From: Patescibacteria group bacterium
GTDB taxonomy: Bacteria > Patescibacteriota > UBA1384 > XYA2-FULL-43-10 > 1-14-0-10-43-13
DNA length: 64,000 nt
Direction: 5' to 3'
Assembly (NCBI GenBank): GCA_041674765.1
Contig: JBAYVE010000003.1
Location: forward strand, 66,040 to 130,039
Shown: positions 9,800-63,433 of the stretch, piece by piece
How positions within the stretch are numbered: the stretch's first letter is position 1
Layout of the letters: the number at the start of each line of letters is the position of its first letter
Notes under the pieces: generated by a model
The model's database searches: none
What the model saw: only the letters and a program-made list of their open reading frames with translations
Told to the model about the DNA's origin: nothing
Made by a program: the position numbers and the translations under genes

Positions 9800-10447
9800 T
9801 TATTTAATGAATTCTTCGATATTAAAGACTCTTTCGCCCTTGTAAACCCAGACCTTGACGCCAATAATTCCATAAGTGGTAAGAGCAGTCAAGTATTTAT
9901 AATCAATATCAGACTTAAATGTTGAGAGAGGCACAGTACCGTAGATAAGCTTCTCTGTCCGTGCGATGTCGGCACCATTTAATCTACCTGCGACCTGAAC
10001 CTTTATTCCTTTTACACCAGCTGCTTTTGCTTTTTCGATAGACTGCTTCATTGCTCTCTTGAACGGAATACGTTTTTCAATTTGAGAAGCAATATTTTGC
10101 GCTACAATTGCGGCATCAGAATCAGGCTTCTTGATCTCAATGATGTTAATCTGAATCTTCTCTTTGATGAATGTAGCAAGAAATTTCTTCAATTCCTCGG
10201 TACCCGCACCGCCACGGCCAATGACAACACCGGGGCGACCTGAGTAGATATCGATCGAAACCTTATTTGCATCTCGGCTGATAATAATTTTTGAGATTGA
10301 GGCATCTTTGAGCCGTTTTTCAAGAGCACGTCGAATCTGCACATCCTGAATAAGCGATTCGCTATAATTTGTCCGTCCAAACCATTTGGACTGCCACAAC
10401 TCATTTATTTTCAACCGGATAGATTTTGGGTTAACTTTTTGTCCCAT
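9800..10447 (-). CDS. rpsC: 30S ribosomal protein S3.
   Basis: MGQKVNPKSIRL start, KH and S3-C domains, 215 aa. Confidence 0.93.
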   Translation of the reverse strand: MGQKVNPKSIRLKINELWQSKWFGRTNYSESLIQDVQIRRALEKRLKDASISKIIISRDANKVSIDIYSGRPGVVIGRGGAGTEELKKFLATFIKEKIQINIIEIKKPDSDAAIVAQNIASQIEKRIPFKRAMKQSIEKAKAAGVKGIKVQVAGRLNGADIARTEKLIYGTVPLSTFKSDIDYKYLTALTTYGIIGVKVWVYKGERVFNIEEFIK

Positions 10448-10851
10448 TATTCTGCTTTCTTATCCTTGTTATTGCTTTTAATATCTTCTGACTTTTTAGC
10501 TTCTGTTTTCTTCAAAGGTTCTTCGACTGATTCCAGTGTTAAAACTATATGTGAAAGTCTCTTTGTGATTCTACGAGCCTGACCCTTTGACCAAGGAATA
10601 ATCCTTTTCAAACGTGGACCTTCGTTGCAATAAATACTCTTAATTACTACCTGATTTGGCTCAAAGTAATTCTCCTTTGCGGCAGCGATGCCGGACTTAA
10701 CCAAATTGTGAAGCAATGGTGCAGACTTTTTATTTACAAACTGAAGATTGATTTTTGCTTGATCTGCTGTCATCCCACGGAGACCATGTAAAACAGGCCG
10801 GACCTTCCGGGGTGAAATTCTCAAATATGTTGTTTTAACTGTAAATTCCAT
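10447..10851 (-). CDS. rplV: 50S ribosomal protein L22.
   Basis: 134 aa, in order, with a K/E-rich tail. Confidence 0.9.
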   Translation of the reverse strand: MEFTVKTTYLRISPRKVRPVLHGLRGMTADQAKINLQFVNKKSAPLLHNLVKSGIAAAKENYFEPNQVVIKSIYCNEGPRLKRIIPWSKGQARRITKRLSHIVLTLESVEEPLKKTEAKKSEDIKSNNKDKKAE

Positions 10852-10895
10852 AATAACCTAATATCTAATTGGTCTAATTGATCGAATCAAAGGAA
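10852..10895 (-). promoter_or_regulatory. Copy 3 of the conserved leader motif (TTCGATCAATTAGACCAATTAGATATTAGGTTATT-ATG) upstream of rplV.
   Basis: Sequence match. The intergenic gap between rpsS and rplV is about 90 nt. Confidence 0.5.
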
Positions 10896-10938
10896 TTTCT
10901 CTATTAGATTTATTCGCTTGATTCGACATTCGGTTGTC

Positions 10939-11226
10939 TTATTTACCCTTTGCTTGTTCCTTGGCCATCTTACCACCATGACTTCTAAACTTTCGCGTCG
11001 GTGAAAATTCACCTAGTTTATGTCCAACCATCTCTTCAACAACAAACACCGGTAGATGATCCTTACCATTGTGGACGCCGAAGTTAACTCCAACCATTTC
11101 AGGCACTATCGTGCAACTTCTTGCCCATGTCTTGATTGGTTTTTTGTCTCCTGATTGTGCTGCTTTTTGGACCTTCATCAACAGTTTCTCATCAACGAAA
11201 GGGCCTTTTTTAAGTGATCTAGACAT
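10939..11226 (-). CDS. rpsS: 30S ribosomal protein S19.
   Basis: [15 protein letters not shown] start, 95 aa. Confidence 0.93.
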
Positions 11227-11233
11227 AATCCTA

Positions 11234-12064
11234 CTATTTCTTTCTTCTGCTAATTATGAGGCCCGAACTTGACTTCTTCTTGTTTCTGGTTCTTCGGCCA
11301 AGAGCTGGAGCGCCCCAAGGTGTCTTTGGATATTTCATACCGATTGGTGAATGTCCTTCACCACCACCATGTGGGTGGTCGACCGGATTCTTTGATTTAC
11401 CCAAAACTGTCGGTTTTACACCAAGGTGACGGACTCGGCCGGCCTTGCCATAAACGACTTTGGAGTGATCAACATTTGAAACAACTCCTAAAGATGCAAA
11501 ATTCTGCGACCGGATTTTTCTAACTTCACCAGAAGTTAGGCGAATCAATGCAAAGTCTCCATCGAGACCGAGCATTGTTGCAAAAGTTCCGGCGCTACGG
11601 CAGATTTGTCCACCTTTACCAGTTGTCAATTCAATATTATAAATTTGAGTTGCGGGAGGAATATTTTTAAGTTGCATTCTGTTGCCAAGACGAATTGGGG
11701 CATTTTCATCACAGATAATTGTCTGAGCTTTTTTTAAATTTTCAGGAGCGATCATATAGATTTTGCTGCCGTCTTCATATGAGATCAGAGCAATATTTGC
11801 AGTTCTGTTCGGATCGTACTCAATAGCCTTGACGATACCTTTTTTGCCAAGAAAACCAGTCATTGAGAAATCAACAATACGGTATCTTCTCTTGGCTCCG
11901 CCACCTTTGTGAGCAGTTAGAATTCTACCGTCTGATCCTCTTCCTACACCTCTTTTAATACCAAAGGTTAGAGACTTCTCCGGACTCTTCTTTTCAATAT
12001 CGAAAACCTGGAAGGACATTTTCCTTCTAGCATTGGTTGTCGGTTTTGTTTTGATTATTGTCAT
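11234..12064 (-). CDS. rplB: 50S ribosomal protein L2.
   Basis: 276 aa with a GRNxxGxITxRHRGGGHK-like core ([11 protein letters not shown]) and PHGGGEG. Confidence 0.93.
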
Positions 12065-12138
12065 ATGTAATAATGCTAAAGGCTAAATTAAACGAAATAA
12101 CGAAATTATATTTTTAGTTATTTAGTTTATTTTCGTTT

Positions 12139-12537
12139 TTAGCGTGCCTTATTTCTTACCTTAACTGTTGTATCTTTGTCTTCTTTTTGAGCCTCAGCCT
12201 TCTGGCTCTTCTTTTCTGCCTTGGCTTTTTCACTCTTTGCAGGCTTTGTTTCTTCTTTCTCAATCTCGAAGAGGTCAATCTTCTCACCCTTTCTGAGCGT
12301 CACAATGGCCTTCTTGAAATCTGACCGCTTTCCGGAACCCTTCTTTGTCCGCTTGATCTTACCTTTGAAGATGGCAGCATCAACATGTTCGACATGAACA
12401 CCGAAAAGTTCTTCTAAACAGGCGGCAACTTCTTCCTTGGTTGATTTTTTGTCAACAATAAAGGTGAATTTGCCAGCGGCAGCCTCTTTGAAACTCTTTT
12501 CTGTAATTACAGCTTTTTTTAAAATACTTGTGTTCAT
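12139..12537 (-). CDS. rplW: 50S ribosomal protein L23 with a K/E/A-rich C-terminal extension. The start is taken at the Met that gives the canonical MNTSILKKAVITEKS N-terminus; the track ORF begins 36 nt upstream and overlaps rplD.
   Basis: L23 N-terminal motif, in the canonical position. Confidence 0.85.
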   Translation of the reverse strand: MNTSILKKAVITEKSFKEAAAGKFTFIVDKKSTKEEVAACLEELFGVHVEHVDAAIFKGKIKRTKKGSGKRSDFKKAIVTLRKGEKIDLFEIEKEETKPAKSEKAKAEKKSQKAEAQKEDKDTTVKVRNKAR

Positions 12538-12541
12538 ATGA

Positions 12542-13165
12542 CTATTTGTTATAAATCTCTTTAAGCTGATCAAGTGAACTCTCAGAAATAACGATCTTAT
12601 CAGTTGAGATAATGTTTAATATATCCAGCTTCATCGGTGTCATCAGATTAATCCCGGCGATATTTCCGAAAGCTCTTCTGGCATTCTCGTCTTTTTCGCT
12701 AAACAATAAGGCCACTTTACCTTCTGCCTTCACGTTTGACAAAATGTTGACAGCATTCTTCGTTTTTGGGTCATCGATAGCCAGAGTATCGAGGACAACC
12801 GCTTTCTTATCACTGAAAGCTTCGCCAAGACAAGCAAGGATTGCTTTTCTCTTCAGACTCTTGTTGATGCGAATCCGAAAATTCTGATCGCTAGTAGGGC
12901 CGAAAGTTACGCCGCCGCCAACCCAAAGAGGCGATCTGGTGGAACCCTGACGTGCACGGCCAGTACCTTTTTGTTTGAACGGTTTCTTGCCGCCGCCGGA
13001 AACTTCGCTACGGTCCTTGGTGTTGGCAACAGGACCACGAAGAGCATTCCGCAGGTAATTTATGTATAAAGTTAAAGCTTTATCGGATATTTTGGCATCA
13101 AAAGCTTGATCTAGTGTTAGATCTTTGACTTTTTCGCCTTTTTGATTTAAAACTTCAACTTTCAT
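12542..13165 (-). CDS. rplD: 50S ribosomal protein L4.
   Basis: 207 aa in the L3-L4-L23 order. Confidence 0.9.
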   Translation of the reverse strand: MKVEVLNQKGEKVKDLTLDQAFDAKISDKALTLYINYLRNALRGPVANTKDRSEVSGGGKKPFKQKGTGRARQGSTRSPLWVGGGVTFGPTSDQNFRIRINKSLKRKAILACLGEAFSDKKAVVLDTLAIDDPKTKNAVNILSNVKAEGKVALLFSEKDENARRAFGNIAGINLMTPMKLDILNIISTDKIVISESSLDQLKEIYNK

Positions 13166-13170
13166 ATAAA

Positions 13171-13767
13171 CTACTCGCTTGCTTCTGCTGATTTTTTAGC
13201 TGATTTAGAGAAAATCCGAACAATTGATTTGTTGGGGCCGGGAATTGCACCTGAGACAAGAATGATATCTTTGTCTATGTCTATAACCTTCAGATTTTTG
13301 ACTGTTACCTTCAAATCACCCATATGGCCTGGCATACGTCTGCCTTTGACAACTCTCTCTGGAAAGCCGCCGCCGATAGACCCTGGCTCTCTCACATTGT
13401 TGCTACCGTGAGATTCAGGACCTCTGTGAAAGCCATGTCTTTTGATAGTACCGGCAAAACCTTTGCCTTTGCTTGTACCCTCGACCTCGACTTTTTCGCC
13501 TGCTTCAAACTGACCTAAAGTGATTTTTTCGCCTACCTTGTAGTCACCAGGGGTCTCAATGCGAAATTCAACAATTTTTGCAATTTTTGAATTCTCTTTG
13601 CTGTCTTTTGATGCCTTTACCTGCACGGCGTTGTAGCCATTCTTCTCAATGGTTCTGATTTCAGACACAAAACATGGCAGAGCTTGTACTTTTACTACAG
13701 CAATGCTTTTTCCGTCAGCGTCGAAGACGCGTGTCATGCCTAATTTTCTGCCTAAAATAAATTTCAT
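13171..13767 (-). CDS. rplC: 50S ribosomal protein L3. The start is taken at the ATG that gives MKFILGRKLGMTRVF; the track ORF begins at a TTG 15 nt upstream.
   Basis: L3 N-terminal GxKxGMT motif, in the canonical position. Confidence 0.9.
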   Translation of the reverse strand: MKFILGRKLGMTRVFDADGKSIAVVKVQALPCFVSEIRTIEKNGYNAVQVKASKDSKENSKIAKIVEFRIETPGDYKVGEKITLGQFEAGEKVEVEGTSKGKGFAGTIKRHGFHRGPESHGSNNVREPGSIGGGFPERVVKGRRMPGHMGDLKVTVKNLKVIDIDKDIILVSGAIPGPNKSIVRIFSKSAKKSAEASE

Positions 13768-13782
13768 ACAAACCGATAACAA

Positions 13783-14406
13783 ATTATATTAGTGTACAGA
13801 TAGCGATCTAACCTCGTCCAAGAACTTAAGTTATTAAATTCTTGGAAAGATGGGAACACGGTAGCGGTATATGCTCCGTGTTCCCCGAAACCAAGGTATC
13901 TGACCGCAATTGGCGGATTAGTGCGATAAGATACCTCAGGGGTGGCAAAAGAAAAGTGTTAAGACACACGCAATCCCAAGTGAGAGAAGGATTACCTGTG
14001 CAGAGCCGATACTCTCCAGTGGCACACCCCACAGACAATCTCAAGTGAGAAAGAAAGATCGTCTGTGTTGACCTAAAAATTTTTGTTTTCAATACAAGCT
14101 GAACATATTGTTGAGCTCTGATAGAAGGTGTTTCCTTTGTATCAAGGCTCAAACGAATAAATAGCCGTAGATCACATTCGACAGACTGTAGTCTTCTGAA
14201 AGAAAACGAGCCGGGTCGAAGGATATCCATGACCTGTTAATGAGATAACAAATTTATCTATCAACAAGTAATAATCTAACCTATTTTGGAACGAAAGTCA
14301 ACGGTCACCACCAGCTGAAAGCTGAAAGCCAAAAGCCTAAGGGAATAAACTGAATTTTCTTTAAGCTTTTGGACTTTATGCTTTTAACTAGTCAATCGAA
14401 GATTGA
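13783..14406. other. Spacer of about 620 bp between rpsJ and rplC with locally raised GC and many stem-loops; no credible ORF.
   Basis: rpsJ and rplC are normally adjacent. Hairpins such as GGAACACGG..CCGTGTTCC, GGTATCT..AGATACC and TAGTCAATC-GAA-GATTGACTA are visible. The ORFs in the six-frame track here have implausible L/R/S-rich composition. Confidence 0.5.
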
Positions 14407-50373: not shown

Positions 50374-51074
50374 TAGCACTTTCCGGCCGCTGTGAGTTCG
50401 GCGAGCCGGAGATGAGCCCGATAAAGGATCTCATCGAAAATTTCATTGTACTTGGCAAGCAAGCACTTGGGGATAAACATTCGGCACTCGATAGCCATCC
50501 GGTAGAAATCCCCACCTTCGATAGTTTCTCGGAGCATCCGCAATTCTGCTTTTTCTGAGCCTCCGTGAGGACGGCGCAGATTGTGCAGCCGATCCAGTAG
50601 TTTGGCAAATGGTATCTGCCACATTTGCCTGAAGAAAAGCAGGAAATGCCTTTTCGACGCAGCCTCGATAATCTGATCGAAGTAGTGTCTTAAGTACAAA
50701 TCCCTTTCTTCGTCTGAGTTGAATTTTCCATGCTCCTCTTTGGTCAATGCCTTCACGCCGAAGGTGACAAGCGGGCCAAAGATGGGGCCGAATGACCTAG
50801 ACAGTTCACGTGCCTTTATCTTGCCATCCTCAAAAACATCATGAAGAACGCAGATCAACACTAGAAGAAAATTGTAGAAAAACTCCTTTGACATGTCAGA
50901 TACTGCCAAGAGATGTTCTACTTGAGGATGTCCAGACCGGTCAACTTTTCCTTTGAGCTGTGAGGTTGTGATATGAACAGCTAAGTGCTCCAATCCCAGA
51001 AAAAGCCAATTTGTTCCATGGAGATGCCGCTCCATGTATCTATCGGCGTTTACACCTAGGGGTACATGAATCAT
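50373..51074 (-). CDS. Small alarmone hydrolase (RelA/SpoT-type HD-domain (p)ppGpp pyrophosphohydrolase, Mesh1-like).
   Basis: HD-domain His...HD pattern (HLLAVSDM ... LHDVFED) and an LDRLHNLRR motif, 233 aa; GC-rich. Confidence 0.7.
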   Translation of the reverse strand: MIHVPLGVNADRYMERHLHGTNWLFLGLEHLAVHITTSQLKGKVDRSGHPQVEHLLAVSDMSKEFFYNFLLVLICVLHDVFEDGKIKARELSRSFGPIFGPLVTFGVKALTKEEHGKFNSDEERDLYLRHYFDQIIEAASKRHFLLFFRQMWQIPFAKLLDRLHNLRRPHGGSEKAELRMLRETIEGGDFYRMAIECRMFIPKCLLAKYNEIFDEILYRAHLRLAELTAAGKC

Positions 51075-51316
51075 CGATCATCTCCTTTCGATTTTGTATG
51101 TGCTCGACCAACAAAAAAGGGCCCCGAGGGGTCCTAGTAGTTGGTCGCGTGTTTTTGTGCGCAGAGATCTAGTTTCTTTGAAATAAAGTGCCAAAATTTT
51201 TGCCAAATCTTGCTCATTAAAATGATAATAGAGCAAGCACTTGCCAGTGTCAATACGCTATATAAAATAGATCTGGACCGGTGCTAACATTTTCCTACTG
51301 TGGATAACTTTATACA

Positions 51317-51348
51317 AAAATTAGCCAGCCCCGAAGCTGACTAATTTT
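51317..51348. terminator. Hairpin AAAATTAGCCAGC-CCCGAA-GCTGACTAATTTT in a 720-bp ORF-free region.
   Basis: Read from the sequence, with T-runs on both strands. Confidence 0.5.
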
Positions 51349-51795
51349 CTGCTCATAGATATCTATTGTCTGCCTTAAGTCAGACACCGCCTGATTAGCG
51401 GTTTGCAGTCTTCCCGAATTTAGCGCGAGTACGAAAGTGCGCTAACTATTGTTTACCTTATATATATGATCGGAAAATATGTCTAAAGTTATTAGGAAAT
51501 TACTTTTTTTTGTAATAAGTTACAGAATCATTAGCATTTATACTCCATTCCTAAGCTTCAGCTTGCCATGCAAACGCGTGCAATATCTTAGGTTTGACAA
51601 CGAACAACCTGACGATCTAACCATAGGCTGGCGATGACACAAAATTATGACATTCGCTTTTCATTTTTTTTACCTCTCAATTCAGAAATCGCAGTTGGTA
51701 CGATACAATAAATTTGTTTTTTAACAAGTATTTATTCTTATTGTCTTTTTAGAAATTCAGTAGTATGCTTTTGTCATACAATTAAACAAATCAAA

Positions 51796-52608
51796 ATGCC
51801 AAAGCCAGATAAAGATGTCTTTCGGTTAGCGCATCATTCTCGCAATTTGGGCCTTCTGACCGAAGACAACCAAGACAAGATCAGCAATACCACATTGTTG
51901 ATTGCTGGCTGTGGTGTCGGTTCTCAAGTTGCTCTCTCGGCTGTCCGCATGGGATTTGAGAAATTTATCATTGTTGATGGCGACACAGTCGAGCTTTCAA
52001 ACAACAATCGGCAAGGTTACAGTTGGCGCGATGTCGGACGGACTAAAGTCGATGCACTAGCCAAAAAAATAAAATCCATAAATCCTCACGCTCATATTCG
52101 AAAATATCCTATTTTTATTGATGCCAAAAATGCTGAACGGATTTCCAAAAAGGCCGATATTATCATAGACACTATTGATCCAGATGCTGTGATTGCAGTT
52201 GTGGCGCTTCATCGATCTGCACAGAAGCACAAACAAACTATAATACAACCAACTGATGTTGGATGGGGCGCAATGGTTCAAATTTTCACTCCAGATTCTA
52301 TTTCATATGAAGAAATGATTGGGATGAATCCAAAGACTAGAATCGATAGAATTGATGAGAAAGAAGGCTTTGCTAAGTTTGTTGAATTTTTTATGAAATT
52401 GATGCCTACTTATGTACAGGAGTTAGCTCTTGATGTCGCCGAAGGCAGACGAGATCATTACCCTCAACCAGTCTCAGCTTCATATATACTTTCTGCCATG
52501 GCTATAATTGCAGCAAAACGTATAGCTTTGGGATTACCTATTAGAATCGCGCCGGAAGTGATCGACTTTGATCCCAATCTAATGTTTACGCCAGATGAAG
52601 AAAAATAA
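51796..52608 (+). CDS. ThiF/MoeB/MccB-type E1-like adenylyltransferase.
   Basis: LLIAGCGVGSQVALSAVRMGFEKFIIVDGDTVELSNNNRQ, a Rossmann GxGxxG plus the NRQ motif, 270 aa. Confidence 0.8.
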   Translation: MPKPDKDVFRLAHHSRNLGLLTEDNQDKISNTTLLIAGCGVGSQVALSAVRMGFEKFIIVDGDTVELSNNNRQGYSWRDVGRTKVDALAKKIKSINPHAHIRKYPIFIDAKNAERISKKADIIIDTIDPDAVIAVVALHRSAQKHKQTIIQPTDVGWGAMVQIFTPDSISYEEMIGMNPKTRIDRIDEKEGFAKFVEFFMKLMPTYVQELALDVAEGRRDHYPQPVSASYILSAMAIIAAKRIALGLPIRIAPEVIDFDPNLMFTPDEEK

Positions 52609-53923
52609 TCTGATATTAGTATTGATCGCACTCTCAGTAGCTGACTTTCTTGGTGCAGTTGATTCAACAAGTGTGAATATTGCACTCCCAAAAATTACTG
52701 AAACTCTACATACTTCAGTAATCGTCTCTCAGTGGATTCCGAATGCATTTACCCTGACACTGGTGGCATTCCTAATACTAGCTGGCAAAATCGGCGATAA
52801 AATAGGAGCCAAAAAACTATATCTATCAGGATTATTATTATTTGGGTTGGCTTCTCTAATTCTTGGATTTACAAATATTACTTGGCTTTTGATCGGATTT
52901 AGAGCAATTCAAGGAATAGCTACGGCAATCCTTTATACAATGCCCATGATTATCATCGCACACCATTGGAAAGATAGAGAAAAAGCTTTTGCTGTTACTG
53001 CTGCCACTTTTGCTGGCGGAATGCTGGTGGGACCAGTGCTTGGTGGAATTCTCACAAATTTAAATCTTGGCAATTTTTTCAGTTGGCATTTGATCTTTCT
53101 AATTAATATCCCATTTGTCATATTTGGTCTAATTATTGCCAACAAATACATTCCTGAGACACCAGCAAAGTCATCTATGAAACTCGATTATTGGAGCGCA
53201 CTCATACTCGCATTTTCATTAGTCATACTTGTTCTTGCCTTCTCAATCATCAGCAGGTATTTTATCATATTGGGATTTCTTCTACTGGTCCTACTTTATT
53301 TCTATCAGAAGAAAACAGAAAACCACCTCCTCGATTTTACGCTTTTTCAAAATCAAACTTTTGCCGCAGCTAATGTTTTAAGTTTTATTTCCATGGTATC
53401 GGTAATTGGCATGTCTTTTGTTCTGACTTTTTATCTCCAAGACACCTTACATTGGAACCCAATGCAATCCGGATTCGCATTGCTCCCAGTGCCAATCATT
53501 ACTGGAGTATTCTCTGGAATCGGTGGTCAAATCAAAAACTGGAAATTAGCAGGGTTTTTGTCTAGTATTTTTATTTTCCTTGGCATCGTATATTTGACTC
53601 AAATAAAACCAGAATCTTCATACGTTATATCTATATTGCCAGGCCTCGCATTGGTATCGGCCGGAGCCGGATTTTTGATGACAACAATCTTTGCAGCTAT
53701 ACTTGGATCGGCTCCAACTGAGAATTCGGGTAGCGCTTCTGGTATACTAAATACATTACAACAAATGGGTTCTTTAATTGGAATTGCCCTAATATCAAGC
53801 ATGGTATTACAATACAAATTATCCTTTACAATACTATCTATATGTAGTATAATAGGTATATTATCGGCATTTTTTATAAAAAATAACAGCTCTTCAAAGA
53901 GCGGAAAGTTAGGATATAGGTAG
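52595..53923 (+). CDS. MFS transporter (drug or metabolite efflux type).
   Basis: 442 aa with 12-14 predicted transmembrane helices; overlaps the end of the E1 gene. Confidence 0.8.
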   Translation: MKKNNLILVLIALSVADFLGAVDSTSVNIALPKITETLHTSVIVSQWIPNAFTLTLVAFLILAGKIGDKIGAKKLYLSGLLLFGLASLILGFTNITWLLIGFRAIQGIATAILYTMPMIIIAHHWKDREKAFAVTAATFAGGMLVGPVLGGILTNLNLGNFFSWHLIFLINIPFVIFGLIIANKYIPETPAKSSMKLDYWSALILAFSLVILVLAFSIISRYFIILGFLLLVLLYFYQKKTENHLLDFTLFQNQTFAAANVLSFISMVSVIGMSFVLTFYLQDTLHWNPMQSGFALLPVPIITGVFSGIGGQIKNWKLAGFLSSIFIFLGIVYLTQIKPESSYVISILPGLALVSAGAGFLMTTIFAAILGSAPTENSGSASGILNTLQQMGSLIGIALISSMVLQYKLSFTILSICSIIGILSAFFIKNNSSSKSGKLGYR

Positions 53924-53928
53924 GTAAA

Positions 53929-55470
53929 ATGAAAGAAAAAAAAGCTCCAGACATTAAAGAGATCATGGCTGATTATGATAAAGCTGTTGAATTTTTAGCT
54001 AATACCCCGGCTGAAGTATGGGAAAATATCGGTACTAAGACTGCACTGTCTGTTTTTGAAGATACTACTGAGAACATACCTGCATATAAGAGGTTTCTTC
54101 AAAATGAAAAATTCGATCCTAAGCAAATTAAAACAATGGATAGTTTTTTTGAAATTCCAGTTAGCGATAAATATAATTATGTTCAACCTTTTGGGTTCAA
54201 TGAGATAAACTCGGTGCAAGCAGGCAAGAACTTGTATAGTTTTTCTTTGAGCTCGGGTACCGCTGACGATCCGACGATATGGCCACGATATATACAATAC
54301 GAGGATTTTTTACCTTCAGTCTTCGATGTATTTATGCGCCAATATTGGAATATAGATAAAAAATCGAGCCTTGTACTTAATGCTTTTGCTATGGGCCCCT
54401 GGATTGCCGGATTCTGTGTCCATCAAGCTCTGCGGCCTTTGACACAGAAATATAAATTGACTATGGGCACCACAGGTGCTGACATTGAGAGTATAATTTA
54501 TGCAATTTCAAAAATATCTCAGTACTACGACCAGACAATCATTATGTCATATCCAACCTTTGCTAGAACAATTTTAGACCGTTTGGAACAAACAGGAATT
54601 AATATTAAGAAATTGAACCTGAAAATGTTTATTGCCGGGGAAGGGCATACTGTCGAATGGCGACAATACATTAATAAAATGACTTCTGGTAACAAAAATG
54701 ACTTAATATCCATCATTGATGGATATGGTGTTACAGATACAGGGCTAGCGGGACAAGGATCAGCGTTAACAAACCTGATACGAGATCTCGCATTCAAGGA
54801 TGAAAAACTATCGAAGAGCTTGTTTGGGGAAGCTAATTCTGTCCCTTCTCTCTTCCAATATAATCCCGGTAATTATTTTATCGAAGAATATAATGGAGAA
54901 ATATTATTTACGACAAAAGCTACTACTCCGCTAATAAGATATAATATTCACGATAGAGGTGGAATTATTAAATTTCGAGAAATGGAAAGTATCCTTGCAA
55001 ACCATGGCTATGATTATAAGAGACTGATCAAAAAGGCTGGGCTTCCACTAAGTATTATCAGTCAGCAACCATTTGTTTATTGCTTTGGTCGTCGAGATGA
55101 CACCATTATTATTGGCGGAGCAAATATTTTTCCAGAACAAATTGCTCCTGCATTATTTAATGAAAAGGTTAAGGATATTCATAGTTTTAAATTGACAACA
55201 AAATTTGACAAGAAACAACATCAACTTTCATATGCTATTCTTGAATTAAAATCGGGGATCACTTACAAAAAAAATCAATTAGTAAGGCTAAAAAATAAAT
55301 ATCATAATACTATTCTTAATAGACTGCTGAAGACTAGCAGTGATTATGCTGTTTCTTACAAGGCAGATCCTAAATATGCAGATATAATTATAGAGATTTT
55401 CGAGAATGGGCAGGGACCATTTGCCAGCGATAGCAGTCGAACCAAACCTAGACTTATTCTAAAAAAATAG
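53929..55470 (+). CDS. Adenylate-forming enzyme of the GH3/PaaK/F390-synthetase superfamily.
   Basis: SSGTADDPT, a variant of SSGTTGKPT, and a YGVTDTG-like motif, 513 aa. Confidence 0.6.
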   Translation: MKEKKAPDIKEIMADYDKAVEFLANTPAEVWENIGTKTALSVFEDTTENIPAYKRFLQNEKFDPKQIKTMDSFFEIPVSDKYNYVQPFGFNEINSVQAGKNLYSFSLSSGTADDPTIWPRYIQYEDFLPSVFDVFMRQYWNIDKKSSLVLNAFAMGPWIAGFCVHQALRPLTQKYKLTMGTTGADIESIIYAISKISQYYDQTIIMSYPTFARTILDRLEQTGINIKKLNLKMFIAGEGHTVEWRQYINKMTSGNKNDLISIIDGYGVTDTGLAGQGSALTNLIRDLAFKDEKLSKSLFGEANSVPSLFQYNPGNYFIEEYNGEILFTTKATTPLIRYNIHDRGGIIKFREMESILANHGYDYKRLIKKAGLPLSIISQQPFVYCFGRRDDTIIIGGANIFPEQIAPALFNEKVKDIHSFKLTTKFDKKQHQLSYAILELKSGITYKKNQLVRLKNKYHNTILNRLLKTSSDYAVSYKADPKYADIIIEIFENGQGPFASDSSRTKPRLILKK

Positions 55471-55491
55471 CAAGAAATAGGAGGGACAACG

Positions 55492-57144
55492 ATGCATGAT
55501 TATGATTTAATTTTAGGACCACTAATATCTTTGTCGTGCGTTGCCATAGGCCTTGTAATGCTTTTTAACGGTGGTCACCATTCAGAAACAAAAGTGGCTT
55601 CTATTCTCTCCATCTCGATTGGCATTTGGATAATCAGTGCATTTTTTTCAGATTTACCCTCGCTAGCGAACTATTCACTGTTCTTAAATCGATTGGTATT
55701 CTGCGCTCTTGTTATAATCATGAGCTCGTTATTATATTTGCCGTATATTTTTCCTAGACAAACTAAACCAGCAAAGTACATAAAATGGCCTCTAATAATA
55801 TTTAGTATGATTTTTAGTATTTATGCGATTGTCACTACAGGAATTGTGGAACATATAGAATTTATGAGTTGGGGTACTAATTTAGTTTATGGAAAATTTT
55901 TCCCTATTTTTTATTATTATGCAATGACAGCAATTACATTCTCTTTGGGAATGTTTATCTACCACTACATTAAATTAGACAAAAAAGAACGATTAAAAAT
56001 TATCTATTTTCTAGAAGGTCTTTTCATCTTTATGATAATTACGGTTCTAATCCATACAGTTATAAGGTCTCTAGCGGGCAGCGATGAATATTACCGCTTT
56101 GGTAATTATTCAGCTATTGTATTTGTGTATTTCACCGCCTACGCAATCGCAAAGCACCATTTGTTTAACATCAGAATATTCCTTACAGAAATTGCCTTCT
56201 CTTTAATTATGTCTGCCATAGTTGTGCAAGCAGGTTTATCGCGAGGAATCTTTGATCTGAGTGTGAACATAGTAATACTATTTATAACTTCTTACGGCGG
56301 TTATTTGTTACTAAAATCTATTCGGACGGAAATTAAACAGAAGGAAGATCTTGCTATCCTTGCACAGGAACTCAAAGAAGCCAATGAACACTTGAAAGAA
56401 GTTGATAAATTGAAAGACGACTTCTTGTCCATGGCTTCGCATGAATTGAATACCCCTATCGCCGCTATCGAGGGATATTTATCGATGATTTTGGAAGAGG
56501 GCATGGGAGGAAAGATACCAGAAAAAGCGCGTGGATATCTAGATAGCGTTTTTGTATCATCAAAAAGGCTCGCTAGCATGGTCAAGGATCTTCTGAATGT
56601 GTCCAGAATCGAATCCGGTCGTATTCATATCATCTGGGAACAAAAGCCTGTCGAGGACATTGTAAATCAAGCCATCACTGAGGTCATGTCAAAAGCGAGG
56701 GAAGCAAAACACTCTCTTACTTTTGAAGAGCCGAAACACAAAATGCCTGCTACGTGGTTCGACATAACCAGAATTACCGAGGTTGTGATAAATATTCTTG
56801 GCAATGCTATCAAATACACTGACCCTGGTGGAAAAATTGTTGCCCGAGTCACAAATGATGAGCACAAGATTGTTGTTTCTGTAGAAGATAATGGCAAGGG
56901 TATCCCGAAGGAACGCCAACAAGCGGTTTTCGAGAAATTCACTCAAGTTGATGTGATGAAAGATGAAGTCAAAGGTACAGGGCTTGGAATGTATATTTCG
57001 AAGAGATTCATAGAGCTAATGGGAGGTAAAATCTGGTTTACTTCCGAGGGAGCCGGCAAAGGCACAACTTTCTATTTTTCTCTGCCTATTATAAAAGAAA
57101 AACCCTCCGACCCGCATGAAGGCGAAGGTTTAGTCCTAAAATAA
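55492..57144 (+). CDS. Sensor histidine kinase with seven N-terminal transmembrane helices, HisKA and HATPase_c; no adjacent response regulator.
   Basis: H-box SMASHELNTPIAAIEGY, N-box NAIKYT, G-boxes DNGKGIP and GTGLGM. Confidence 0.88.
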   Translation: MHDYDLILGPLISLSCVAIGLVMLFNGGHHSETKVASILSISIGIWIISAFFSDLPSLANYSLFLNRLVFCALVIIMSSLLYLPYIFPRQTKPAKYIKWPLIIFSMIFSIYAIVTTGIVEHIEFMSWGTNLVYGKFFPIFYYYAMTAITFSLGMFIYHYIKLDKKERLKIIYFLEGLFIFMIITVLIHTVIRSLAGSDEYYRFGNYSAIVFVYFTAYAIAKHHLFNIRIFLTEIAFSLIMSAIVVQAGLSRGIFDLSVNIVILFITSYGGYLLLKSIRTEIKQKEDLAILAQELKEANEHLKEVDKLKDDFLSMASHELNTPIAAIEGYLSMILEEGMGGKIPEKARGYLDSVFVSSKRLASMVKDLLNVSRIESGRIHIIWEQKPVEDIVNQAITEVMSKAREAKHSLTFEEPKHKMPATWFDITRITEVVINILGNAIKYTDPGGKIVARVTNDEHKIVVSVEDNGKGIPKERQQAVFEKFTQVDVMKDEVKGTGLGMYISKRFIELMGGKIWFTSEGAGKGTTFYFSLPIIKEKPSDPHEGEGLVLK

Positions 57145-61343: not shown

Positions 61344-61994
61344 TCAACTTATCATACTGCTAAGCTTCTTAATCGCAAGTTGTCCGATCCCACTTTCGAG
61401 GGAGAAATCGGCACAGATTTGGAGCCATTGCTCTTCCGTTAGCTGCATTTTCGCCAGAGAGGTAATCCCAACATCGTACAGATTATTCGTTGAAGTAATG
61501 TCCTTGATGAGAGCTATCCAATCATCAGCTTGCCCAACCTCGACCAGTCTCTCCGACACCTTACTTTTCCCCCGAATATCGCTATCCGGGATTGCTTGGT
61601 AAGCTGTCCGCCATTGCTGAAAAGTGATTGCGGTCGAACACATCTCACTCACAGCCTTGACCTCAAGCTGATTACCACGAGGGCATATGGCGTAGATATG
61701 GTGCCAATGATCGAAGCTAGCGGCTGTTTCGGTCATTTTCTGCAACACCGTTGATTTAAGCGTCTGGTGACTTTGCAAGGTTGCGCAGACTTCCAGCCAC
61801 TGCTCAAACGATGTTGCGCGTGTACAGAGGACCTTTATGACCGCAAGCTTGAGATTGCTACTGCCTCCTTTGGCGACTTCGAGCAACCGCTCGAAAGTAA
61901 ACTGTCCTATGAAATCAGGCGGCAATCTGTGCTGCCAGATTTCAAGTGCCTTAACAAAGCCGACCCGGCTAGCCATTTGATCAAAGGTATACAT
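61344..61994 (-). CDS. Hypothetical protein with internal (S/T)FxQW helical repeats. The start is taken at MYTFDQ behind an AGGAGAA ribosome-binding site.
   Basis: Repeats SFEQWLEVC, SFDHWHHIY, TFQQWRTAY and TEEQWLQIC spaced about 35-45 aa apart. Confidence 0.5.
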   Translation of the reverse strand: MYTFDQMASRVGFVKALEIWQHRLPPDFIGQFTFERLLEVAKGGSSNLKLAVIKVLCTRATSFEQWLEVCATLQSHQTLKSTVLQKMTETAASFDHWHHIYAICPRGNQLEVKAVSEMCSTAITFQQWRTAYQAIPDSDIRGKSKVSERLVEVGQADDWIALIKDITSTNNLYDVGITSLAKMQLTEEQWLQICADFSLESGIGQLAIKKLSSMIS

Positions 61995-62171
61995 CACGAT
62001 TCTCCTAATTGGAACTGGCTTAGTAAAAATTATATCAATATTGAACAAAAAGCAAGGGCTAGGAAAAGCTGAATATCAATTTTGAGTTATTTTCTTGACA
62101 AAAATAACTCCTTCACTTACAATATCACACAACGGTAGCCAAGCTATCGGTGTACAAAGGGGGTGATTCAC

Positions 62172-62207: not shown

Positions 62208-62282
62208 ATGCCACTAACCGACGCTATGTCGGATGACACGCGTGCGGGGAAGGGTTTTACCCTGAACCGCACGTATTTTTGA
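62208..62282 (+). CDS. Small ORF MPLTDAMSDDTRAGKGFTLNRTYF (24 aa) whose stop overlaps the radical-SAM gene start (TGATG).
   Basis: Read from the sequence. It is translationally coupled: the TGA at 62280-62282 overlaps the ATG at 62282-62284. Confidence 0.35.
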   Translation: MPLTDAMSDDTRAGKGFTLNRTYF

Positions 62283-63433
62283 TGAGGGGGACAAGAATTT
62301 TGAGAAAACGGTTTCATCTGGAGGTAACAGGCAAATGCAACCTTCGCTGCCGGTATTGTTACAACTCTGCCTTCAGTACTCCTGAACAGCTCGATAATGA
62401 GCTAACTCTCGAAGAACAGCTCATGCTGATCTCTCAGGCATCTACTATGGGTTGTAACAAGTTTATCTGGTCTGGTGGTGAACCTTTCATCTACGACCAT
62501 ATCTTCGACCTGATCGAAGCGTGTCCGAAAACGAGCCACGTCTCTGTGATCACCAATGCATCACATCTCGGCGATAGCATCATCGAGCGGCTCGACAGCA
62601 TTGAACAGTTCAAGGAGTTGAAGATTTCATGGGATGGCTTTAGCGCCCACGACTCAGTTCGACTAGGTAGTTCACACCAGCAAGTTTATGATGCTATCAG
62701 GTCGGCGCGATCACACGCTCCTCGACTCAACATCATCATAAACACGATGATGAGCAAATATAGTGCCGGTGAAATAGGCCGGCTCTATGGTACGCTCAAG
62801 GACCTTGGCGTCCACCATTGGCGCATTGATATGCCGTTCAACTCCGGCCGCTGCACAGAGAATGCCGACATTATGGACATATCCTTTGAGCAAATTGTCC
62901 TGACATATCGTGATCTGCTGACGCAGTACTTCGCGGACGGCAAGCCGATGATTCTGGAGGTGTTCAATGTCTATAAGTCGATGATGGGCACTGATGCCTA
63001 TTACGACTTTGACTCCAACGTACATCCGTGTGCGTACTACGACAATACCATTGTTATGCGGCCGAATGGCGACCTGACCTATTGTCCATCACTCGGTTTC
63101 CCGCTTGCCAACTGGCGAGACGGAAAAGATCTCGCTGAGACAGAGAGACTTGCTAATCTGCATCCTTATCACGACCTTTTGCTGAGCGATATCGGCGCAT
63201 GTCTGAATTGCCGCTATATGAAGCTGTGCGGGGGTGGATGCAGAGCGGATGCAATCACATGGGGCAGTAGACTTACAGGATGCGATCCCTTCAACTGTTC
63301 GATGATGCCATATATCGAGCGACACATCATACCGATTCTGCCGCCGGTAGAGCAAGCAATGTACAGGTACTACATCGATCCGTCGAAAAATAACCCACGC
63401 TCCTACGTCAAGGCCAGTGATATCGACGTCTGA
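62282..63433 (+). CDS. Radical SAM enzyme with a C-terminal SPASM domain.
   Basis: CNLRCRYC (Cx3Cx2C) and a SPASM CLNCRYMKLCGGGC (Cx2Cx5Cx3C), 384 aa; GC-rich. Confidence 0.85.
   Translation: MRGTRILRKRFHLEVTGKCNLRCRYCYNSAFSTPEQLDNELTLEEQLMLISQASTMGCNKFIWSGGEPFIYDHIFDLIEACPKTSHVSVITNASHLGDSIIERLDSIEQFKELKISWDGFSAHDSVRLGSSHQQVYDAIRSARSHAPRLNIIINTMMSKYSAGEIGRLYGTLKDLGVHHWRIDMPFNSGRCTENADIMDISFEQIVLTYRDLLTQYFADGKPMILEVFNVYKSMMGTDAYYDFDSNVHPCAYYDNTIVMRPNGDLTYCPSLGFPLANWRDGKDLAETERLANLHPYHDLLLSDIGACLNCRYMKLCGGGCRADAITWGSRLTGCDPFNCSMMPYIERHIIPILPPVEQAMYRYYIDPSKNNPRSYVKASDIDV

Follow-up and report, generated by a model that had tools for sequence, protein, structure and literature searches.

The E1–MFS–ligase–kinase locus

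This work concerns four adjacent genes in a 64 kb stretch of DNA (the window) from a Berkelbacteria-like genome of the Patescibacteria. They encode an E1/ThiF-like adenylating enzyme (hereafter the E1), a major facilitator superfamily (MFS) transporter, an adenylate-forming ligase and a seven-transmembrane (7TM) sensor histidine kinase. Scans for open reading frames (ORFs) and protein families find all four on one strand, at the positions where a first-pass annotation of the DNA had placed them. A mini-ORF upstream of the E1 gene, to which that annotation had drawn attention, is listed last.

51796-52608, + strand: E1/ThiF-like adenylating enzyme, 270 aa (Pfam ThiF, 3.7e-33)
52595-53923, + strand: MFS transporter of the DHA2/EmrB type, 442 aa (Pfam MFS_1, 2e-43)
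53929-55470, + strand: predicted PaaK-type adenylate-forming ligase, 513 aa (by fold and motifs; no Pfam match)
55492-57144, + strand: 7TM sensor histidine kinase, 550 aa (HisKA, 1.7e-16; HATPase_c, 2e-29)
51765-51785, + strand: mini-ORF MLLSYN, judged to be a chance ORF in AT-rich, promoter-proximal DNA and to lie outside the system

The overlap between the E1 and MFS genes that had been claimed measures 14 nt. The MFS and ligase genes are separated by 5 nt, and the ligase and kinase genes by 21 nt that contain an AGGAGG Shine-Dalgarno sequence. With this overlap and these short gaps on one strand, the four genes look like a single operon. Its 3′ end abuts a convergent cysteinyl-tRNA synthetase-like gene, recognized by its similarity to a gene of a related locus (L004) that carries Pfam tRNA-synt_1e. 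A database protein identical to the E1 comes from the metagenome-assembled genome of a Patescibacteria group bacterium. The nearest relatives of the E1 carry the Berkelbacteria label, and the gene order E1-MFS(-ligase-kinase) recurs across sister contigs, which exceeds chance. The first-pass annotation had seen in the cluster a module for producing and exporting a small molecule, with an orphan sensor kinase. This general half of the proposal is supported and allows a sharper statement; its specific half, a microcin C-like cluster (mccA-mccB-mccC), did not stand, as discussed below.

The E1 resembles AclA

The E1 carries both motifs of the GxGxxG...NRQ signature attributed to it, GCGVGS at residues 38-43 and NNNRQ at residues 69-73, together with the invariant ATP-site residues G38, G40, D61, N69, Q73, K84, D125 and D128. 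The Rossmann fold begins at about residue 15 of the 270, and the sole cysteine, C39, lies inside the GCGVGS P-loop. With a single Cys, the protein has neither the Zn-binding Cys pairs nor a catalytic Cys.

The closest solved structure is AclA from Tenacibaculum discolor (PDB 9EGB, 9EGC and 9EGD, "in complex with substrate", released 2025-08-13). In a profile search against all PDB chains, AclA (9egb) aligns over the full length (positions 5-255; 1.4e-51), and ThiF (7e-23) and MccB (about 4e-15) align in the core alone. The AlphaFold model of the E1 (predicted local distance difference test score, pLDDT, 94.7) likewise has 9egb as its top Foldseek match (E 7e-21, template-modeling (TM) scores 0.80/0.86). 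The best full-length NCBIfam match is PRK08223, which covers residues 14-259 at 109 bits (cut-off 266), and the Rv1355c-family model reaches 47.8 bits (cut-off 476) over residues 5-147 only. Collectively, sequence profiles and the predicted structure point to a standalone member of an AclA/PRK08223-like clade. AclA is itself a standalone E1 of about 265 aa with the same C-terminal helical subdomain and without a peptide clamp. However, its identity with the window E1 is only about 27-30%, and the two differ in their genetic surroundings: AclA orthologues adjoin an acetyltransferase-like gene and a LuxR-type regulator (see below), whereas the window E1 adjoins an MFS transporter, a PaaK-like ligase and a kinase. 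An anti-phage system was also considered and rejected: PADLOC matched Cap2-type models at the generic E1 core only, and an E2/JAB partner is absent.

Gene neighborhoods of E1 relatives

A scan of one genome per species gave 74 loci with E1 relatives, in which ORFs were called, clustered and classified with hidden Markov models (HMMs); here, loci are cited by L-numbers and proteins by P-numbers. In the Berkelbacteria-like clade (53-73% identity to the window E1), 12 of 13 contigs have an MFS gene directly after that of the E1. The 513-aa ligase is present in seven loci whose contigs extend far enough, and the 7TM kinase in five. The exception to the E1-MFS order is L013, where the E1 gene is followed by a FeeM-like N-acyl amino acid synthase (NAS) gene and then by a kinase 51% identical to that of the window. 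In L013, the NAS thus stands where the window has the MFS transporter and the ligase.

Outside the candidate phyla radiation (CPR), the E1 relatives keep different company. A FeeM/TIGR03694-type NAS lies within four genes of the E1 in 30 of 50 such loci, mostly adjacent to it, and neither the MFS nor the PaaK-like gene occurs in any of the 50. These NAS proteins are about 190-400 aa long (median about 250), score above the gathering cut-off of Pfam FeeM and match TIGR03694 at up to 1e-56. In the loci of AclA orthologues (44-61% identity; Chryseobacterium, Sphingobacterium and Chitinophaga; L065-L079), the neighbors always include a LuxR-type (GerE) regulator whose N-terminus is PAS-like. A NAS-like GNAT protein of 218 aa stands beside the AclA orthologue in nine of ten Bacteroidetes loci and was not detected in the tenth (L076). 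Current Pfam and NCBIfam models miss this GNAT, and hhalign aligns it with true NAS at 98.4% probability (E 6e-15). The layout of these Bacteroidetes loci resembles a quorum-sensing circuit.

Several sister loci depart from the window arrangement. In L001/L006 (8800-10347) and also in L002, only about the first 307 residues of the MFS protein remain, joined in frame to a NUDIX domain, and the ligase and kinase genes are missing; the locus has either decayed or been rewired. In L003, four genes on the opposite strand are inserted between the MFS and PaaK-like genes (10173-14360), among them two methyltransferases, a LuxE-type acyl-protein synthetase and a radical S-adenosylmethionine (SAM) enzyme, which suggests that tailoring genes can be taken up at this locus. 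In L004, two small ORFs that separate the MFS gene from the ligase gene were considered as precursor peptides and rejected; by eye, they are a HicB-like antitoxin and a coiled-coil protein.

The PaaK-like ligase and its family

A Pfam scan of the 513-aa ligase returned nothing, including for AMP-binding, GH3 and LuxE, and the PaaK (phenylacetate-CoA ligase) model TIGR02155 matches it at 1e-15 (57 bits, cut-off 646). Foldseek searches with the AlphaFold model (pLDDT 90.3) return BT_0428 and PaaK1/2 at 1e-24 to 1e-22 and NatL2, AjiA1 and ClxA at 1e-18 to 1e-16, whereas GH3/JAR1 appears only at 3e-12. By its predicted fold, the protein is a PaaK-family enzyme of the ANL superfamily, neither GH3 nor LuxE. 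The first-pass annotation had called it GH3/PaaK-like and had proposed sorting it among GH3, PaaK and LuxE; of its label, only the PaaK part holds. The adenylation motifs are intact: SSGTADDPT, described earlier and located at residues 108-116, GYGVTD (265-270), RYNIHDRG, GRRDD (387-391) and the invariant K506. These motifs and the two-domain ANL fold are what the ligase has in common with PaaK1/2, BT_0428, NatL2, AjiA1 and ClxA. It differs from PaaK-family ligases in its low identity (about 16%), in being about 80 residues longer, in lying outside the Pfam and NCBIfam families and in having no phenylacetate catabolic context. NatL2, AjiA1 and ClxA condense acyl-adenylates without CoA, and GH3 enzymes couple acids to amino acids; GH3 amido synthetases may be viewed as functional analogs of the window ligase.

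The family is large, and Pfam has no model for it. A word-indexed search gave 93 homologues, of which those with a named source are mostly from Patescibacteria or related candidate phyla, and a full HMM scan gave 4,289 representatives, 1,103 of them at E<=1e-30. Some members are fused to a ThiF domain of the type found in TrzS, the cyclase of a known oxazolone system (see below), and the fusions occur in both orders, ligase then ThiF in P0236 and ThiF then ligase in P0268. A third fusion, P0282 (L085 4986-12237; 1,242 aa), joins a ScyB-like tryptophan dehydrogenase, a PaaK-like ligase and a TrzS-type ThiF domain, and its neighbors are a nitroreductase-like gene, an alpha/beta-hydrolase gene and a HisKA_7TM kinase gene. 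Distant unfused members (31-35% identity) in L080 and L083 adjoin Rv1355c/TrzS-type ThiF genes and HisKA_7TM kinases; these ThiFs match the Rv1355c model at 8e-80 and 1e-86, respectively (269-292 bits). Overlapping ThiF, ligase and 7TM kinase genes form operons in L080, L083 and L085, and nitroreductase-type flavin mononucleotide (FMN) oxidase genes are present in L083 and L085. The fusions and operons argue that the ligase family is coupled to ThiF-type cyclases. Other neighbors of distant members, in various loci, are amino-acid dehydrogenases, aminotransferases and an aromatic ammonia-lyase.

Two of these loci deserve mention in their own right. The P0282 locus looks like a candidate pathway in compact form, by which an aromatic amino acid would be turned into a heterocycle. 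In L084 (4367-7347), the gene of a distant PaaK-like member (448 aa) and the end of a gene for an aromatic amino-acid ammonia-lyase overlap, which hints at aryl-acrylic acid substrates in some lineages.

The exporter and the 7TM kinase

The MFS protein matches the NCBIfam model of the DHA2/EmrB subfamily, TIGR00711, at 9e-50, below the cut-off of that model. Its gene is translationally coupled to that of the E1, and we propose it as the product exporter, a role in which we infer the direction of transport.

The kinase has about seven hydrophobic segments within its first 265 residues. HisKA_7TM (PF16927) matches it at 18.7 bits, under the gathering cut-off of 28.6, and an iterated HMM built on residues 1-285 recovers PF16927-bearing proteins, those of L080-L083 at 1e-55 to 1e-87 and that of L085 at 8e-35. 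On these profile matches, the N-terminus is assigned as a HisKA_7TM-type sensor domain, followed by HisKA and HATPase_c. As had been described, the kinase comes without a response regulator: tblastn with three response regulators found no receiver domain in the whole 64 kb. The same 7TM domain is found in kinases of L008, L012, L013, L014, L080, L081, L083 and L085, with an HD output in proteins of L082, and in a 7TM-PAS-GGDEF-EAL protein directly beside the NAS and E1 genes in five Clostridium loci. Hence, a 7TM sensor stands beside E1 and/or PaaK-like genes in the five Clostridium loci and about ten CPR loci. A receptor for the product or a precursor would be expected to look like this, with one input domain, varied outputs and a place beside the biosynthetic genes. 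We therefore propose that the window kinase may sense one of these.

This arrangement recalls LuxI/LuxR-type quorum sensing, in which a small-molecule synthase gene adjoins a dedicated sensor. Here, the input domain is kept across lineages and the outputs vary (kinase, GGDEF-EAL or HD), or a LuxR-type regulator takes the place. In contrast to LuxI/LuxR systems, the window has neither LuxI/LuxR homology nor a response regulator, and its signaling role is a purely putative one.

A proposed pathway for a carboxylate-derived metabolite

A NAS together with a ThiF-like cyclase is an experimentally established pair for making acyl-oxazolones (PMC10404671, PMC12856293, PMC12596934; bioRxiv 10.1101/2020.06.11.147165). 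In OxzA/OxzB, TyzA/B/C and TrzA/TrzS, the substrate of the ThiF enzyme is a small N-acyl amino acid supplied by an enzyme encoded nearby; its amino-acid carboxylate is adenylated, and a ring then forms (PMC10404671; PMC12856293; PMC12596934). According to a review, acyl-oxazolone biosynthesis is the only type of pathway in which small-molecule-acting ThiF-like enzymes have been documented (PMC12596934). The window shares several features with the oxazolone systems of Pseudoalteromonas rubra (OxzA/OxzB) and Mycobacterium tuberculosis (TrzA/TrzS) and with TyzA/B/C. In other phyla, relatives of its E1 are paired with NAS, and CPR relatives of its ligase adjoin or are fused to TrzS-type ThiF proteins and occur with nitroreductase-type oxidases. 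It differs in that the E1 is of another clade, that NAS and flavin oxidase are missing, that the amide-forming step would be ATP-dependent (an ANL ligase) rather than acyl-CoA-dependent, and that an MFS transporter and a dedicated 7TM kinase are added.

By analogy with these systems, we suggest that the operon builds, exports and monitors a small carboxylate-derived metabolite, a reading on which our confidence and our doubt are about evenly balanced; from context and homology, we infer the substrates, ring chemistry, transport direction and signaling. In the Patescibacteria, the PaaK-like ligase takes the place of the NAS. The ligase would adenylate a free carboxylic acid, probably of amino-acid or aryl origin, and would couple it to an amino acid through the amino group of the latter; the resulting amide would be of the N-acyl-amino-acid type. 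The AclA-like E1 would then adenylate the free carboxylate of this amide. Displacement of AMP by an internal nucleophile could yield an oxazolone-type ring, another lactone or lactam, or an activated acyl donor; alternatively, an amine could attack the activated carboxylate. The coupled MFS pump would export the product, and the HisKA_7TM kinase would detect this product, or a precursor of it, within the membrane and pass the signal to a regulator whose gene lies elsewhere. Fatty-acid and acyl-carrier metabolism is generally missing from CPR bacteria. This feature provides a possible rationale for the replacement, as an ATP-dependent ligase acting on free acids could stand in for a NAS that depends on acyl-CoA or acyl-ACP.

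A number of observations weigh against this reading. Homologues of NAS and of the flavin oxidase were sought in the window and none was found; without an oxidase, a simple saturated oxazolone would be labile. By its profile matches, the E1 falls in a ThiF clade other than that of the proven oxazolone cyclases, and a full-text literature search and the ThiF review gave no publication on AclA and no identity for its ligand. PaaK enzymes normally produce CoA thioesters, so direct amide formation by the ligase is an assumption; the ligase family is large and uncharacterized, and the function proposed for it is drawn from its context. The adjacency of the sensor alone is no proof that the product is the ligand. 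Moreover, L001 has the E1 and MFS genes without ligase or kinase, and L081 and L082 have the ligase and 7TM sensor without a ThiF gene, arrangements which indicate that the two halves of the module can exist apart.

CPR bacteria, with their minimal metabolism, are presumed to be host-dependent. A wider proposal can be offered tentatively, with our expectation leaning against it: the CPR may have a hitherto unrecognized family of signaling systems based on self-produced small molecules. In these systems, an ATP-dependent PaaK-like ligase and a ThiF cyclase (AclA- or TrzS-type) would convert scavenged or amino-acid-derived acids into an acyl-amino-acid-derived heterocycle, which an MFS protein would release and a HisKA_7TM protein would detect, in a manner similar to quorum sensing. 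Such a circuit would be analogous to NAS + AclA + LuxR in the Bacteroidetes and to NAS + E1 + 7TM-GGDEF-EAL in Clostridium. The action of a ThiF-like enzyme on a small molecule of the acyl-amino-acid type is already known; new here would be another E1 clade, an ANL ligase for the NAS, the lack of an oxidase, a coupled exporter, a dedicated 7TM sensor and the occurrence in Patescibacteria. The operon and the roughly 1,100 ligase representatives suggest that ThiF chemistry on small molecules is far more widespread and that its substrates can come from an ATP-dependent ligase as well as from a synthase that uses acyl-CoA. This chemistry is repeatedly wired to one kind of membrane sensor. Were the product indeed the ligand of the sensor, the locus would offer the CPR a first candidate for a system that signals between cells or senses a host, and HisKA_7TM receptors would gain a ligand class.

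Alternative explanations

The microcin C-like account of the first-pass annotation holds that the E1 adenylates the C-terminal Asn of MLLSYN and that the MFS protein exports the resulting antibiotic. The order E1 then MFS does match mccB-mccC, and the window shares with the microcin C (MccA/MccB/MccC) and pantocin (PaaP/PaaA/PaaC) systems an E1 beside an MFS exporter and a common ATP-binding core. The six-codon, Asn-terminal MLLSYN ORF lies, as stated there, 10 nt before the E1 ATG and without a Shine-Dalgarno sequence; in L015, MAINN lies 4 nt upstream of the E1 gene. However, the window differs from both systems in having no N-terminal peptide-binding domain, Zn site, conserved precursor ORF or immunity genes. 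A check of the E1 for the peptide clamp of MccB, by sequence, profile and structure, found no counterpart. The alignment with MccB is limited to about MccB residues 106-214, with profile positions 26-125 aligned to residues 110-211, and with this confinement to the core the clamp, a domain of about 100 residues that resembles a RiPP (ribosomally synthesized and post-translationally modified peptide) recognition element, is missing. PaaA, like MccB, matches the E1 in the nucleotide-binding core only (single-sequence and profile searches, all PDB chains), and the Foldseek TM score of the E1 model relative to MccB is about 0.5. The one Cys of the E1 also means that there is no Zn site. Of 12 distinct sister loci, 4 have a mini-ORF that begins with ATG and stops no more than 40 nt from the start of the E1 gene; it is Asn-terminal in two and absent in that form from the other ten. 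The two Asn-terminal peptides, MLLSYN and MAINN, are unrelated in sequence, and the counterpart in L001 is MLSNYL. Among 184 further genes of these AT-rich loci, 3.3% are preceded by an Asn-terminal mini-ORF, and against this background the excess is not significant (P about 0.06). Pfam and NCBIfam scans found no immunity gene within the operon, and the conserved partners of the E1 clade are NAS or PaaK-like enzymes. We regard a microcin C-like antibiotic as highly improbable. Equally little credence is given to a housekeeping role of the ThiF/MoeB/TcdA kind (in thiamine, molybdopterin, thiolation or tRNA ct6A pathways) for an enzyme beside which a transporter lies by chance. The database annotation does read "ThiF family adenylyltransferase", and the top NCBIfam match by E-value is the ThiF model PRK08644 (7.6e-32). 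Its score of 110.7 bits is nevertheless below the cut-off of 159, and the other curated models are also far below theirs (TIGR02356, 82.9 bits vs 275; TIGR02355, 53.3 vs 377; TcdA, 47 vs 304); the ThiF, MoeB and TcdA matches cover only the N-terminal, nucleotide-binding half of the E1. Moreover, no GG-terminal ORF of at least 40 aa, as for a ThiS/MoaD-like carrier, was found across the 64 kb, so that the sulfur-carrier role named in the first-pass annotation as the competing possibility is not borne out. The E1 has no catalytic Cys or Zn site, and a housekeeping role offers no rationale for the conserved overlap with the MFS gene.

Two further explanations were weighed. The operon could serve inducible detoxification: a toxic aromatic or fatty acid from outside would be detected by the kinase, conjugated by the ligase (much as auxins are inactivated by GH3 enzymes), modified further by the E1 and pumped out by the MFS protein. 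This idea, which we consider unlikely, draws on the DHA2/EmrB drug-efflux type of the MFS protein, on the action of PaaK-family and GH3 folds on free acids and on the frequent location of sensor kinases beside efflux operons; furthermore, the aminotransferases, ammonia-lyase and amino-acid dehydrogenase near distant ligase homologues handle common amino-acid-derived acids. Yet the dehydrogenase-ligase-ThiF fusion flanked by an FMN oxidase looks biosynthetic and would start from a cellular amino acid, the E1 clade elsewhere pairs with a biosynthetic NAS and with LuxR or cyclic di-GMP sensors, and the tblastn search for response regulators gave no regulator in the window that would make the operon inducible. 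Alternatively, E1 + MFS and ligase + 7TM kinase could be two independent modules that are merely adjacent and share no pathway. The persistence of the first pair in L001 and of the second in L081 and L082 fits this explanation. Against it, ligase-ThiF fusions exist in both orders, ThiF, ligase and 7TM kinase genes overlap in the operons of L080, L083 and L085, and L013 retains the E1 and the kinase with a NAS replacing the MFS transporter and the ligase; the L001 MFS gene is truncated and NUDIX-fused, suggesting a decayed locus. We consider two unconnected modules quite unlikely.

The upstream spacer and other features of the window

The region upstream of the operon (51075-51795) had been described as ORF-free with several hairpins, and indeed it contains no ORF longer than 53 aa and has a hairpin at 51100-51150 with z = -5.3. 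Comparison of this 721-bp spacer with 79 related loci by blastn and tblastx revealed no conservation, and spacer length varies among loci from 67 to about 1,400 bp. In a promoter and terminator scan, counts were no higher than in shuffled sequence. Rfam (whole window at the gathering threshold; the 50900-51900 region at E<=1) and ARAGORN found no RNA family and no tRNA. The spacer features appear to relate to the HD-domain gene, which is divergent, and not to the operon.

The hairpin at 51100-51150 (-26.5 kcal/mol, z = -5.3; no Rfam match) is followed on the minus strand by a run of six U. It sits between a promoter-like site on the minus strand with 11 of 12 matches (51253-51225) and the start, at 51074, of the gene for an HD-domain (RelA/SpoT-hydrolase-like) protein, and it could be a leader or attenuator of that gene. 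Two further hairpins, TTAGCCAGC...GCTGACTAA and TTAGCGC...GCGCTAA, lie at 51317-51377 and 51420-51460. Each is followed by an 18-nt box, TA(T/A)CTATTGT(C/T)T(G/A)CCTTA; the two boxes are 83% identical, and their starts are 83 nt apart. Hairpin and box together make up a small unit that is repeated. The first hairpin (TTAGCCAGC...GCTGACTAA) is terminator-like on both strands.

Farther downstream, the window encodes a radical SAM/SPASM protein (62279-63433, + strand) whose best matches, all sub-threshold, are peptide maturases of the ScmE, StsB and DynA types; from these matches, it could be a RiPP-type maturase. Its gene adjoins one for a 234-aa protein of no clear family (61344-62048, - strand).

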